A stretch of 64,000 bases of DNA, from positions 15 to 64,014 of the forward strand of contig DATJNM010000074.1 of the NCBI GenBank assembly GCA_035508155.1. The letters run 5' to 3'. This DNA is from Candidatus Sulfopaludibacter sp. Its GTDB lineage: Bacteria; Verrucomicrobiota; Verrucomicrobiia; Limisphaerales; UBA11358. Both the position numbers and the translations under genes were made by a program. Under the pieces are notes generated by a model, which saw nothing but the letters and a program-made list of their open reading frames with translations, made no database searches and was not told the origin of the DNA. Shown piece after piece: positions 6,936 through 54,703 of this stretch (the first letter of the stretch is position 1; every line of letters starts with the position of its first letter).

Positions 6936-7027
6936 GGCGGTTGGATTGGCATGGGTACAGGCTGGTGGGGCGGGGCTGTTGACGAGCCGGCTCGCGGGGA
7001 CGCTCACCCTGCCGAAAATGGCAAACC
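6936..7027. repeat. GC-rich structured palindromic element (core TGACGAGCCGGCTCGCGGG), copy 1
   Basis: Aligns over about 90 nt with 29649-29743. It contains the perfect 12-nt palindrome CGAGCCGGCTCG. Confidence 0.75.
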
Positions 7028-7033
7028 ATGTCC

Positions 7034-7534
7034 CTACCGTTGTGTTTCCTTTTTTGCCTTTTCTAAAAGTCGTTGTTCCAGGAAAAATTTTTGCAACAGC
7101 GCGCGGCACTCCAGCTCGCGCACGCCGGAGGTAATTTCACAACGATGATTTAACGTGGGCAATTGCAGCAGGTTCAGCGCACCACCGGCCGCCCCGGCCT
7201 TCGGATCACCGACGCCGAACACCACTCGCGTCAGCCGGGTGTGCACCACGGCCCCCGCACACATCGGACACGGCTCCTTGGTCACATACAGGGTGCCATC
7301 GGTCAGCCGCCAGTCGCCCATGACCTCCTCCGCCTGCGTGAGCGCAAGCATCTCCGCGTGGGCGGTCGCGTCTTTCAGTAATTCGACCTGGTTGCAGGCG
7401 CGGGCAATGACACGCCCTTCGCGCACAACCACCGCGCCGACCGGGACTTCGCCCGCCGCGTAAGCCTTGGCCGCCTGGCGCAGCGCCTCGCGCATGAAAT
7501 AGTCATCGCTGTGCAGGTCAATCACGGGCGCCAT
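7034..7534 (-). CDS. tadA: tRNA adenosine(34) deaminase
   Basis: HAEMLAL...PCPMCAGA deaminase zinc motifs; 166 aa. Confidence 0.9.
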   Translation of the reverse strand: MAPVIDLHSDDYFMREALRQAAKAYAAGEVPVGAVVVREGRVIARACNQVELLKDATAHAEMLALTQAEEVMGDWRLTDGTLYVTKEPCPMCAGAVVHTRLTRVVFGVGDPKAGAAGGALNLLQLPTLNHRCEITSGVRELECRALLQKFFLEQRLLEKAKKETQR

Positions 7535-13329: not shown

Positions 13330-14481
13330 CTATTCATGGACACGGATCAGGGTTTTGATGGCGTGATTGCCGGCGGCCATCTTCTTGAACAATTCCGGCA
13401 ACCGGCTGAGCAGACATTCGCCGTCCACAAAATCCCGCGCGCGAATCAGGCCGGCCTCGATCAATTCCAACGCCCGCCGGATGGCACGTGGCGTGTGATG
13501 GAAACTCGCCAGCAGGGTCAGGCTGGAATAATGAATCAATTCCGTGTCGAATGACGCCTTCGTGCCGGAGGGACAACCGCCAAAAAAATTGACCGACCCG
13601 CCTTTGCGGACGAGTTGCACGGCCGCTTCCCAGGTCTCAGGCCGGCCCACGGCTTCAATGACCACGTCAAATCGGGAGGGCCGCCGCGTCGGCGACCCCG
13701 AAATTCGGGACGGCGGCACGCCGTCCCTCCCAATCACGGCCTTGACCACGTCGCCGTCCTTTCCAACCTCAAAGACTTTTCCCGCGCCCACCCGCCGCGC
13801 GGTCTGCAATCTTTTTTCTCCGCGCCCGGCTATCGACACATTACAACCGGCGTTTTTCGCCAAGGCCACGAACATCAGGCCGATCGGGCCGGCGCCAATG
13901 ACCAGCACGTTTTGGCCGGTGCTCAGATTTGTGTCTGCCACTCCCTGGACAACACAGGCGAGCGGCTCGACGAGCGCGGCGTCACGGAAATCGGTTTCCG
14001 GTTTGAGCCGCAATAGGTTCTGCTGGACGATCCGCGCGGGAATGACAAGGGATTCGGCGTAAGCGCCGTTCAGGAACTGCAAATCTTCGCAGAGATTTTC
14101 CTGGCTGCAACGGCAGTGAAAACAGTCACCGCACGGCGCGGAGTTGGCCGCTACGACGCGGTCGCCGATTTTCCATGTCTCGATTGTCTGGGTCGGGTGC
14201 GTTACTCCGTGCGCGCCGTTTTTTTTGGCGGAATGTGCGGCGGGCAAGGGACTGCCCGTCCCACCACCGGCAACCTCGGAAATCACGCCGGCCAGTTCGT
14301 GGCCAAAGACCGCGGGCGGCACGATCATTTTGGCGTGGTAGCCGCGTTTGAATACCTTCAAATCCGTGCCACAGGTGAGCGCAGCCTCGATGCGGATACG
14401 AACTTCGCCTGGTTTCAACGGCGGCGGTTCGAGTTCCTCGATTTGAATCTGTCCCCGGCCGTGAAGGATGGCGGCTTTCAC
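13330..14481 (-). CDS. Zinc-dependent alcohol/polyol dehydrogenase (MDR family)
   Basis: GHELAG...GDRV...CGDCFHCR zinc sites and a GAGPIGL Rossmann motif. It carries two atypical inserts (see repeats). Confidence 0.85.
   Translation of the reverse strand: MKAAILHGRGQIQIEELEPPPLKPGEVRIRIEAALTCGTDLKVFKRGYHAKMIVPPAVFGHELAGVISEVAGGGTGSPLPAAHSAKKNGAHGVTHPTQTIETWKIGDRVVAANSAPCGDCFHCRCSQENLCEDLQFLNGAYAESLVIPARIVQQNLLRLKPETDFRDAALVEPLACVVQGVADTNLSTGQNVLVIGAGPIGLMFVALAKNAGCNVSIAGRGEKRLQTARRVGAGKVFEVGKDGDVVKAVIGRDGVPPSRISGSPTRRPSRFDVVIEAVGRPETWEAAVQLVRKGGSVNFFGGCPSGTKASFDTELIHYSSLTLLASFHHTPRAIRRALELIEAGLIRARDFVDGECLLSRLPELFKKMAAGNHAIKTLIRVHE
13674..13731. repeat. GC-rich palindrome (GGGAGGG...CCCTCCC family) inside the ADH gene
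   Basis: GGGAGGGCCGCCGCGTCGGCGACCCCGAAATTCGGGACGGCGGCACGCCGTCCCTCCC. Homologous to the intergenic copy at 54649-54702. It encodes ...DGVPPSRISGSPTRRPS... Confidence 0.75.
14191..14265. repeat. GC-rich element (GGTAGGGCG...GGCAGAGGACTGCCCGCCCTACC family) inside the ADH gene
   Basis: GGTCGGGTGCGTTACTCCGTGCGCGCCG...GCGGCGGGCAAGGGACTGCCCGTCCCACC aligns with 21097-21152 and, inverted, with 19609-19698. It is 75 nt (25 codons) and encodes GGTGSPLPAAHSAKKNGAHGVTHPT. Confidence 0.8.
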
Positions 14482-19608: not shown

Positions 19609-19698
19609 GGGTAGGGCAGGTAGTCCTCTGCCCGCTGCGACCGTGGAGAACGGCACGCACGGACTCCGATGAATCGCGAGCGGCTGGCGCGTTCTACC
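19609..19698. repeat. GC-rich element (GGTAGGGCG... family), inverted copy with internal insertion
   Basis: GGGTAGGGCAGGTAGTCCTCTGCCCGCTGC...GGCGCGTTCTACC is the reverse complement of the 21097-21152 type. Confidence 0.7.
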
Positions 19699-21052: not shown

Positions 21053-21190
21053 AACATTCAACATTTAACATCCAACCTCCAGCAACCAACGATTGCGGTA
21101 GGGCGCGCCACTCCATGCACGCCGCGGCGGGCAGAGGACTGCCCGCCCTACCACTGGGTGTTGAATGTTGAACGTTGGAAGTTGAATGTT
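21053..21190. repeat. Composite element: AACATTC-heptamer palindrome arms (21053-21096, 21153-21190) enclosing a GGTAGGGCG-family element (21097-21152)
   Basis: Left arm AACATTC AACATTT AACATCC AACCTCC AGCAACC AACGATT. Right arm ...GGTGTTGAATGTTGAACGTTGGAAGTTGAATGTT. The centre is GGTAGGGCGCGCCACTCCATGCACGCCGCGGCGGGCAGAGGACTGCCCGCCCTACC. Confidence 0.8.
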
Positions 21191-25420: not shown

Positions 25421-25559
25421 ATTTACCTTCGACAGGGAGACGCCAAATGAAGGGATCGAAGATTATCTCCGGTCTTTGTTATCTTCATTTCCTTCTGTGG
25501 AAAATTGGGCGGTGCGCACGGAGTGCGTCGCCCTGCCCTGCATGTTCTTTTCCGCCTCC

Positions 25560-29648: not shown

Positions 29649-29743
29649 GGCGGAATCTTGGTACTGGCCTGCTTTGGTGGGCGAGGCTACTGACGAGCCG
29701 GCTCGCGGGTATGCTCGCCCCACCGAAACAGGCAAAGTAACCC
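29649..29743. repeat. GC-rich structured palindromic element (core TGACGAGCCGGCTCGCGGG), copy 2
   Basis: GGTGGGCGAGGCTACTGACGAGCCGGCTCGCGGGTATGCTCGCCCCACC with flanks aligning to 6936-7027. Confidence 0.75.
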
Positions 29744-29868
29744 ACTACCGGAACCTTTTCCGCTTCTATTTCCATAACCGCGCCTTGACAGAAGGCGTTT
29801 CAATGTTAATCTCCGCGCTCCGTCAAACGGAGATTTTCCCGCGCACCAGGCGCGAATTGAACCGATTT

Positions 29869-30420: not shown

Positions 30421-30516
30421 AACATTCAACATTCAACATTCAACAGCGAACGTCGAATGACGGCAGGAATACACCGTCGCTGGATGTTGGGCGTTGAATG
30501 TTGGTTGTTGAATGTT
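30421..30516. repeat. Heptamer-periodic imperfect palindrome (AACATTC family)
   Basis: Left arm AACATTC x3, AACAGCG AACGTCG AATGACGG. Right arm CCGTCGC TGGATGT TGGGCGT TGAATGT TGGTTGT TGAATGTT. Confidence 0.85.
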
Positions 30517-38260: not shown

Positions 38261-38368
38261 AACAATTGTGAACATCGAACGTTCAACATTCACCGCCCAA
38301 CATTCAAGAAAACGCCCGCGATAATGCTTGCTGCACATTCGGTGTTGAATGTTGATTGTTGCCTGTTC
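38261..38368. repeat. Heptamer-periodic imperfect palindrome (AACATTC family)
   Basis: Left arm GAACATC GAACGTT CAACATT CACCGCC CAACATT. Right arm CATTCGGTGTTGAATGTTGATTGTTG. Confidence 0.75.
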
Positions 38369-38376
38369 ATCTTTCA

Positions 38377-54163: not shown

Positions 54164-54649
54164 ATGACTGACGAATTGCAGAAACGCATTCAGGCTGCCC
54201 TCGCCAACCCGCAGAACTTAGGCGAACTGGCCAACGCGGATGCCGTCGGCACGGTGGGCAACGCCGATTGCGGCGAGATGCTGCGACTCTGGGTGAAATT
54301 CAAGGAGCAGAACGGCAAAAAAGTGATTGACCGCGCCACGTTTCAATCGTTTGGCTGCGAAACCGCCATCGCTGTGGCCAGCCTCGCCACCGAATTGATC
54401 CGCGGTAAAACCGCCGAGGAAGCGCTGGCGCTCAAGACCGAAGAACTGGCGGGCGAACTCGGCCCGTTGCCGCCCATGAAAATCCATTGCGCCCAGCTCG
54501 TCGAAGGCGCGCTCCGTTCCGCGCTCGAACCGGGAAAGGTGGAAAGCGAAACGGCCGCTCCCGCCCACTCACCGACCTTGCTCGACAGCTTTTCCCGACC
54601 CCAGGACGGTCCCGTAAAATTGACCTTCCTGGATGAGGAGAAAAAGTAG
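54164..54649 (+). CDS. IscU/NifU N-terminal-like Fe-S scaffold protein
   Basis: Three conserved Cys in context: GNADCGEML, FGCETAIA, IHCAQL. Starts 4 nt after the moeB stop. Confidence 0.7.
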   Translation: MTDELQKRIQAALANPQNLGELANADAVGTVGNADCGEMLRLWVKFKEQNGKKVIDRATFQSFGCETAIAVASLATELIRGKTAEEALALKTEELAGELGPLPPMKIHCAQLVEGALRSALEPGKVESETAAPAHSPTLLDSFSRPQDGPVKLTFLDEEKK

Positions 54650-54702
54650 GGACGTTGCGTTGGCGGTCCAAATTTCGGGGACGGCGACACGTCCTCCCTC
54701 CC
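54649..54702. repeat. GC-rich palindrome (GGGAGGG...CCCTCCC family), intergenic copy between convergent genes
   Basis: GGGACGTTGCGTTGGCGGTCCAAATTTCGGGGACGGCGACACGTCCTCCCTCCC aligns with 13674-13731. Confidence 0.7.
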
Positions 54703-54703
54703 G

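Follow-up and report, generated by a model that had tools for sequence, protein, structure and literature searches.

Two short, non-autonomous palindromic repeats of different families have very probably landed in a single functional dehydrogenase gene of Candidatus Sulfopaludibacter sp., where they would be read as predicted extra loops of the enzyme. The gene lies at 13330-14481 on the minus strand of a 64,000-nt stretch of contig (C74:15-64014; hereafter the window, to which positions without a contig name refer), and its open reading frame (ORF) and Pfam matches identify the 383-aa product as a zinc-dependent member of the medium-chain dehydrogenase/reductase (MDR) superfamily. The window comes from a 3.70-Mb assembly (labelled G000) of 90 contigs with 57.6% GC and 93% completeness. 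While the product has the expected Pfam domains, ADH_N at residues 23-152 and ADH_zinc_N at residues 199-342, the ADH_N match spreads 99 profile positions over 130 residues, which indicates about 30 extra residues in this protein. The repeat at the first site (site 1) belongs to what we call family A and the one at the second (site 2) to family B.

The family A element occupies 14191-14265 on the minus strand, corresponding to residues 73-97 of the protein (GGTGSPLPAAHSAKKNGAHGVTHPT), and is flanked by the strand GHELAGVISEV on one side and WKIGDRV on the other. The original prediction had described a repeat of 75 nt, or 25 codons, inserted in frame at this position, and its boundaries proved right to the base. 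Membership in the family was established by an iterated nhmmer search of the whole assembly, seeded with an intergenic copy at 21097-21152, which converged on approximately 15 loci in the 3.7-Mb genome and matched the insert with E=4e-10. The insert also sits where it had been placed, with the catalytic-zinc ligands (C37, H61, E62) on one side of it and the structural-zinc lobe (C117, C120, C123, C131) on the other. When the insert itself was left out of the model, it was still detected with E=1.8e-7 genome-wide (31.9 bits), far better than chance, so its resemblance to family A is no accident of GC-rich composition.

Aligned copies of family A consist of two inverted 27-nt units separated by a spacer of about 0-25 nt; both units start with GGTAGGGCG and continue into a hairpin (GGCGCG-TCACTCCGT-GCGCGCC and GGCGGGCAG-AGGA-CTGCCCGCC). 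All full-length copies are dimers, 50-75 nt overall, with ends GGTAGGG...CCCTACC and 9-nt terminal inverted repeats (GGTAGGGCG/CGCCCTACC); the consensus GGTAGGGCG...CGCCCTACC is found in at least six genomic copies and in the orthologous copy of a related genome, L016. By its sequence architecture, family A is classed as a GTAG-tagged dimer of repetitive extragenic palindromic (REP) sequences, similar to a REPIN (REP doublet forming a hairpin). Read in the sense direction of the gene, the intragenic copy comprises unit 1 at 14265-14239 (GGTGGGACGGGCAGTCCCTTGCCCGCC), the spacer at 14238-14218 and unit 2 at 14217-14191 (GGCGCGCACGGAGTAACGCACCCGACC). This copy is decayed: its GTAG ends are mutated to GGTGGGA and GGTCGGG, and its predicted fold no longer surpasses that of shuffled sequence (z=-0.5), whereas the copy at 21097-21152 reaches z=-3.4 and the orthologous copy in L016 z=-4.5.

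Further copies of family A occur elsewhere in the window. The element at 21097-21152 (plus strand, E=1.5e-12), to which the original prediction had likened the insert at the DNA level, is an intact 56-nt member of the family with a short spacer. It forms the exact apex of a larger palindrome built of AACATTC heptamers (arms at 21053-21088 and 21155-21190), with a flanking inverted-repeat score of 13.5 versus a null 99th percentile of 8; the segment 21053-21190 is one hairpin element nested in the apex of another. The heptamer arms are degenerate, and similar heptamer palindromes were seen at 30421-30516 and 38270-38369. An inverted copy that had been reported at 19609-19698 was recovered at about that place on the minus strand in a degenerate state, with an nhmmer core at 19613-19663 (E=1.2e-5 genome-wide), an intact first unit (GGTAGGGCAGGTAGTCCTCTGCCCGC) and a second unit that is interrupted or diverged. 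Codon-usage scores were negative on both sides of this copy, giving no coding signal in its flanks. As for the half-copy suggested at about 25506-25540, a match is present on the minus strand at 25509-25535 and could be a single-unit relic of family A, but it is only marginal (leave-one-out E=0.04 within the 64-kb window, 9.2 bits).

The second element in the gene, an in-frame copy of another family at 13674-13731 (minus strand), is an addition to the original prediction. It is 58 nt long, corresponds to residues 251-269 (GRDGVPPSRISGSPTRRPS), directly precedes the strand FDVVIEAVG, and forms a double-hairpin palindrome, GGGAGGGACGGCGTGCCGCCGTCCC-GAATTTC-GGGGTCGCCGACGCGGCGGCCCTCCC, with a fold of -40.8 kcal/mol in the mRNA sense (z=-3.3). 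A search for repeat pairs had linked 13673-13728 with 54648-54703, and an iterated nhmmer search of the whole assembly from this seed yielded approximately 31 loci, among which the intragenic copy scored E=2e-10 (leave-one-out E=3.1e-10). Family B copies are dimers of 49-65 nt with the consensus GGGAGGGACGGCGTGCCGCCGTCCC, then TGAATTT, then GGGTCGCCGACACGGCGACCCTCCC, and with ends GGGAGGG...CCCTCCC; the GTAG tag was not found in this family, which has GGGAGGG in its place. The partner copy at about 54648-54701 (plus strand, E=1e-8) is intergenic, with coding signals to its left and right on different strands.

The enzyme that carries both elements looks functional from its sequence. Across 29 orthologues the catalytic zinc ligands C37, H61 and E62, together with E172, are invariant, as are the structural-zinc cysteines C117, C120, C123 and C131 and the GxGxxG motif of nicotinamide adenine dinucleotide binding (G196/G198/G201), and a search of the 3.7-Mb assembly found no second close orthologue. 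The best NCBIfam equivalogs are TIGR00692 (129.7 bits; cut-off 458) and NF003808 (127 bits; cut-off 380); identification as L-threonine 3-dehydrogenase or sorbitol (L-iditol) dehydrogenase was rejected because these scores lie far under the cut-offs, and the name "L-iditol 2-dehydrogenase" attached to the protein is a mere source label. A structure model (AlphaFold) built from 29 close orthologues was placed in the MDR fold by Foldseek, with a template-modelling (TM) score of 0.76 to 4ej6/4ejm among targets of 333-358 residues, although the model is of mediocre quality, with a mean predicted local distance difference test (pLDDT) of 65. Its pLDDT falls below 50 at residues 74-99 and 253-265, and further segments are also low; the low values at both inserts are consistent with floppy loops but are not strong evidence for them. 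Alignments to the solved MDR structures 4ej6 and 2dfv cover the sequence before and after residues 74-100 but break across this segment, and have a gap at site 2. The A insert would lie in the GroES-like catalytic domain, at the beta-hairpin turn that follows the GHE zinc-ligand strand, and the B insert in the Rossmann domain, in the loop ahead of the FDxVIEAVG strand. A predicted tryptic peptide, NGAHGVTHPTQTIETWK, crosses an insert junction.

Comparison with relatives supplied the empty site. Searching 30 related species genomes in six frames recovered dehydrogenase orthologues at 67-76% identity, and sister genomes bore out the expectation that orthologues would lack the insert: nine species representatives from the same genus and order (L004-L012) are 343-349 aa long and have neither of the two. 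At site 1 these have a loop of 7-12 residues (for example IAPDVRL-W), and the segment aligned at site 2 spans 16-18 residues versus 30 in the window protein, which thus has a surplus of approximately 26 residues at site 1 and 14 at site 2. The extra segment at site 1 is absent beyond a sub-clade of one genus rather than shared by orthologues in unrelated groups, and the family B insert is absent from most orthologues. By comparison, one orthologue from L016, an independent Joint Genome Institute (JGI) metagenome, has both inserts at the same codons; this protein (P0002) is likewise 383 aa and 86% identical, and its gene is 85% identical to ours at the DNA level. Family A is represented there by a perfect element of 75 nt, GGTAGGGCG...CGCCCTACC, whose spacer is the same as in the window copy. 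The insertion is therefore older than the split between the two genes, and the copy in the window has decayed since.

Substitutions in the A insert between the window and L016 (14/78 positions) accumulated at the same rate as in the flanks (13-18%). The ratio of nonsynonymous to synonymous codons is 7:4 in the insert, compared with 10:25, 21:31 and 15:27 in the flanking segments, which points to relaxed protein-level constraint on the inserted codons. The A insert has taken up substitutions at the rate of the gene as a whole and lost its GTAG ends and hairpin stability; in the course of events that we propose, the Gly/Pro/Ser/Ala/Arg-rich peptides of the inserts would be passengers, not new functional modules. 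In another genome of the same genus (G004, C9:49079-50187), we noted an orthologue with a variant A arm, GGCGGGCAAGGGACTGCCC. The match to it falls into three segments whose frames differ and includes one TGA; a misassembly or a pseudogene with a frameshift may be the cause.

These comparisons make it extremely improbable that the inserts are an assembly chimera formed at a repeat, or a native lineage-specific loop whose likeness to a repeat family is a GC-rich coincidence. Such an error might be suspected in a metagenome-type assembly of 90 contigs and in GC-rich, low-complexity sequence, but the insertion stands at the same codons in independent assemblies (P0002 of L016 and, as the arm variant, the G004 orthologue), the reading frame is unbroken, and the sequence on either side of the insertion is colinear with the orthologues. 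Chance likeness is further contradicted by the leave-one-out result at site 1 and by reversed-pattern searches, with 0 matches in 31 genomes versus up to 45 in one genome for the real pattern. An intein, an intron or a programmed bypass was also considered and rejected, as splicing motifs are absent and the repeat family to which the insert belongs is mostly intergenic.

The dehydrogenase is one of many genes in this genome with such insertions. For every copy of families A and B, we assessed codon usage in the 180 nt on each side and then translated the region; 15 further copies (5 A and 10 B) had both flanks coding in one frame. Pfam confirmed the host gene for 14 of them, with domains on both sides of the element or across it, whereas the remaining candidate, a 194-aa ORF at C58:76591, had no Pfam match and was not counted. 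Counting the dehydrogenase twice, 16 of the 46 copies of the two families (35%) are thus intragenic and in frame. The confirmed hosts are a CCA-adding/poly(A) polymerase-family enzyme, a 1234-aa fusion of major facilitator superfamily (MFS), acyltransferase and AMP-ligase domains, TrpE, RibD, PrmC, a B12-binding radical-SAM protein, a histidine-methyltransferase-family protein, PurM, PurL, HrpB, a CobA/HemD fusion, aconitase (AcnA), a HisS/HisZ-like protein and PabB.

The six in-frame A copies all point the same way with respect to the host gene, and in five of them the first unit is read in one frame, giving GRAG(S/G)(P/S/L)LPAA-type peptides. Since the opposite orientation of family A is stop-free in two frames, this bias is not due to stop codons. 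Family B is read in both orientations, as GRDGVPPS...TRRPS or as EGRRVGDPN...GDGGTPSLP. Four of the host genes have further low-complexity segments: PurL (C55:28793-31255; GKSEIGNRKSEIANN), RibD (C43:53099-54418; QSSKSKVQGSKQ), PabB (C59:33285-34865; AGNPLPAAGQPRTNGRRAPSDGPCRK) and the 1234-aa fusion (C11:19292-22993; RERQSPTGRETDSREQPGTPDTGSARSGNAGEPAEP). These extra segments suggest multiple repeat insertions per gene among the hosts of the two families.

For a broader view of the two sites, we aligned 131 orthologues of the dehydrogenase, namely 11 from the species genomes and the 120 best ones from the database, which are 342-409 aa long, show 67-86% identity and are labelled as metagenome-assembled genomes of Verrucomicrobiota/Limisphaerales. 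Apart from differences at the N-terminal start and one gapped column close to the C-terminus (510 of 523), all indels fall in sites 1 and 2. At site 1, peptides of family A are the most frequent state (49/131), followed by no insert (24), a 12-residue heptad-like SPKSKVQ type (14), RESAH...SRLTSAAT (11), a 45-residue PPHPDPLPR...AEREKNQE type, a ...GEGGRRPGEG type and a GVHA...DKLKLELQ type (9 each), a CSVRPVAE type (3), family B (1) and singletons (2). Site 2 has no insert in 97 of the 131, and otherwise holds KSEIGNRKSEI heptad arrays (17), GVRGHVRALKSGDMSPQSK (7), family B (6) or others (4). The types at the two sites occur in mixed combinations, and nested segments are found inside the A insert, such as LSRRSLAKAEV between GAHG and TRPT (for example in P0045 and P0064) and AIHRSS in the first arm. 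Orthologues with insertions into the A insertion are P0045, P0050, P0054, P0059, P0060, P0064, P0078 and P0082.

On a tree built without these columns, the parsimony minimum was 51 changes of loop state at site 1 and 23 at site 2, counts that are overstated owing to recombination and rest on a tree with only 12 well-supported branches. For this reason, we relied only on the number of distinct, unrelated insert types as a lower bound, which is 10 for site 1 and 6 for site 2. Judging from this alignment, the dehydrogenase tolerates indels in these two loops only, which many repeat families have filled independently in its relatives. The role of recombination is illustrated by P0013 (L014), which has an A insert, and P0107 (L015), which is empty; their backbones are identical. 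The two genes, on metagenome contigs from sister samples, differ at 43 positions, all within nt 47-318, with 0 differences in the remaining 780 nt; the patch of approximately 270 nt around site 1 thus holds 43 differences and a 60-nt indel, while the 1.5-kb downstream flank is 99.9% identical. The loop residues beside the insert differ as well (VAE...AD in P0013 versus LGAGSSALG in P0107). This tract of differences indicates that homologous recombination exchanges the loop alleles in patches a few hundred bases long, and that they are not excised in place.

Such repeated filling could also mean that the loops are preferred targets, with hairpin repeats drawn to these codons or to a hairpin already resident there, which they would nest in or replace. 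We regard this targeting as unlikely, and equally doubt its wider form, in which the loops would be standing "hairpin slots" whose codons are refilled in frame by unrelated hairpin repeats across a Verrucomicrobiota genus or order; besides GTAG-tagged REP dimers, family B and heptamer arrays, the fillers would then include at least seven further families. The variety of unrelated types with no other internal indel position among the 131 orthologues would fit targeting, as would the nested segments in the A inserts of P0045, P0064, P0059 and others, the uniform orientation of the six in-frame A copies, and the known use of REPs as targets by insertion sequences (PMC3733652, PMC10969869). Similarly, 2 of the 15 genomic A copies lie at the exact apex of other palindromes (21097-21152 and C55:6741, both intergenic), with scores equalled by 0 of 3,000 null positions. 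The dehydrogenase inserts, however, are not nested in another palindrome (p=0.45 for A and p=0.22 for B) and have no shared target motif or duplication, and the empty alleles have ordinary loops of 7-9 residues. Strong purifying selection elsewhere in a conserved enzyme would yield the same pattern, and a few old alleles spread by recombination would inflate the apparent number of events on the poorly resolved tree. Relatives of the query are, moreover, over-represented among the 131 orthologues; an insert at site 1 is present in only 4 of 16 in the unbiased species set. Were targeting nevertheless at work, integration would be structure-directed, at or into resident hairpins, in place of random insertion followed by selection, and the population would hold a recombining pool of loop alleles.

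Under the preferred reading of landing followed by selection, a REP-associated tyrosine transposase (RAYT) would probably mobilize families A and B in the form of single-stranded hairpins, and insertions into coding sequence would survive only with a net length that keeps the frame, a stop-free frame and a tolerant surface loop. One RAYT gene was found in the genome, on contig C76 at about 87-700 of the minus strand (L013), with a PF01797 match of 32.5 bits and an NF047646 score of 81 bits that is barely above the cut-off of 80. A third REP-like hairpin, (T)AGGAGCGCGGCTGTCCCAGCCGCAG, lies on either side of the gene; it is neither A nor B and has a TAGG-plus-hairpin build like that of family A. 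Among the 31 genomes searched, the A arm was found in 19, from five genera of the order, with 0-45 matches each, and the B arm in 10, all of the genus of the window, with 0-69 matches; reversed-pattern controls for both arms gave none. Separately, the window has a pair of 72-nt direct repeats of a different family, 78% identical, at 6968-7039 and 29679-29750 (GGGCGGGGCTGTTGACGAGCCGGCTCGCGGGGACGCTCACCCTGCCGAAA...).

Several observations weigh against the account of two passenger repeats. The sole RAYT found adjoins the third family, with a score near the cut-off, and family B lacks the GTAG tag; mobilization of the two families by a RAYT is therefore plausible, though an inference. No target-site duplication or shared target motif was detected in the flanks of the 46 copies (15 A and 31 B). 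The B insert, at 58 nt, is not a multiple of three, and the frame was kept through an accompanying gain or loss of loop bases. The structure model is poor, so that assignment to surface loops draws mainly on what is generally known of this fold and on alignment with solved structures of MDR proteins. Finally, the B insert differs from its L016 counterpart at only 4 of 60 positions, compared with approximately 14% in the surrounding gene, which could reflect constraint on the hairpin at the DNA or RNA level, conversion from other copies, or chance.

This last difference bears on whether the loops have been exapted, that is, whether the peptides or the mRNA hairpins were recruited for oligomerization, partner binding, translation rate or mRNA stability and kept by selection. 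Besides the conservation of B above that of its flanks and the retention of its stable hairpin, such a role could explain why the A insert has been retained since before 15% DNA divergence, and why five of six in-frame A copies share the frame of the first unit and the type of peptide. We consider it quite improbable, since nonsynonymous changes outnumber synonymous ones in A, the A hairpin has decayed, and near-identical enzymes hold unrelated sequences or nothing in these loops. The same elements are also found in 14 unrelated enzymes, and the insert peptides are of low complexity and disordered according to the model. Two repeats carried as passengers in tolerant loops remain our preferred explanation.

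The closest known system is that of the GTAG-tagged REPs described by Di Nocera, De Gregorio & Rocco (2013), which form dimers and, with RAYT genes, "REPtrons" (PMC3733652). Like these REPs, family A is built of hairpin units headed by GTAG (imperfect palindromes of 27 nt, within the described 20-40 nt, with a 6-9-bp stem) that are inverted around a variable spacer, as in REPINs, and the repeats make up dispersed multi-copy families, several per genome, with copy numbers that vary among relatives and a RAYT gene present. Intragenic GTAG REP dimers were reported to encode 20-30 aa, in frame and sometimes with two in one ORF, with Verrucomicrobia the richest group and the highest number in the verrucomicrobium Opitutus terrae (PMC3733652). 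A and B are probably sequence families different from the published GTAG-17 to GTAG-20 (PMC3733652); family B is also without GTAG, the RAYT gene is flanked by a third family, and the copy numbers are low (15 and 31). Reuse of the same two loops by unrelated families across orthologues, and the swapping of loop alleles by recombination, go beyond that description (PMC3733652).

The Rickettsia palindromic elements (RPEs) of Ogata et al. (2000), as far as they are summarized in PMC10969869 and PMC3733652, are the classic example and are likewise selfish palindromic repeats inserted in frame in housekeeping genes. According to those summaries, they share with our elements the presence in unrelated, intact housekeeping genes (here the dehydrogenase twice and 14 others), a large intragenic fraction (approximately a third here versus nearly half for RPE-1), a preferred reading frame that gives a conserved peptide, and a predicted location compatible with the fold. 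RPEs are described there as approximately 100-150 bp long and restricted to Rickettsia, whereas our elements are REP dimers of 56-75 nt and occur in a free-living soil verrucomicrobium, so that phylum and size class set the two apart and the likeness we claim is one of behaviour, not of family membership. Bacterial MITEs (miniature transposable elements with inverted repeats) such as Correia/NEMIS, ERIC and Nezha are also short, non-autonomous and hairpin-forming, with terminal inverted repeats and occasional in-frame insertions, yet our elements show no target-site duplication and consist of two REP hairpins, not a degenerate insertion sequence. Typical MITEs are 70-300 bp, and we regard the A and B elements as much shorter.

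In-frame repeat insertion has thus already been published for Verrucomicrobia and Rickettsia, and the recurrent use of the same two loops is the only moderately new aspect. The dehydrogenase is a well-documented case of REP-type selfish DNA tolerated in frame in a single-copy metabolic enzyme, as its boundaries are exact to the base, an empty site and an intact orthologous copy are available, the decay could be measured and recombination tracts were seen. Roughly one copy in three of the two repeat families lies inside a gene in this uncultured soil lineage, which would account for unusual loops of low complexity and for differing lengths among Verrucomicrobiota proteins, as well as for spurious "hypothetical proteins" read from repeats of the A and B type. 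The two loops of the MDR fold are marked as places that accept 12-48 extra residues, and their reuse by many families offers a concrete system in which REP-like site choice could be told apart from a filter of selection only.

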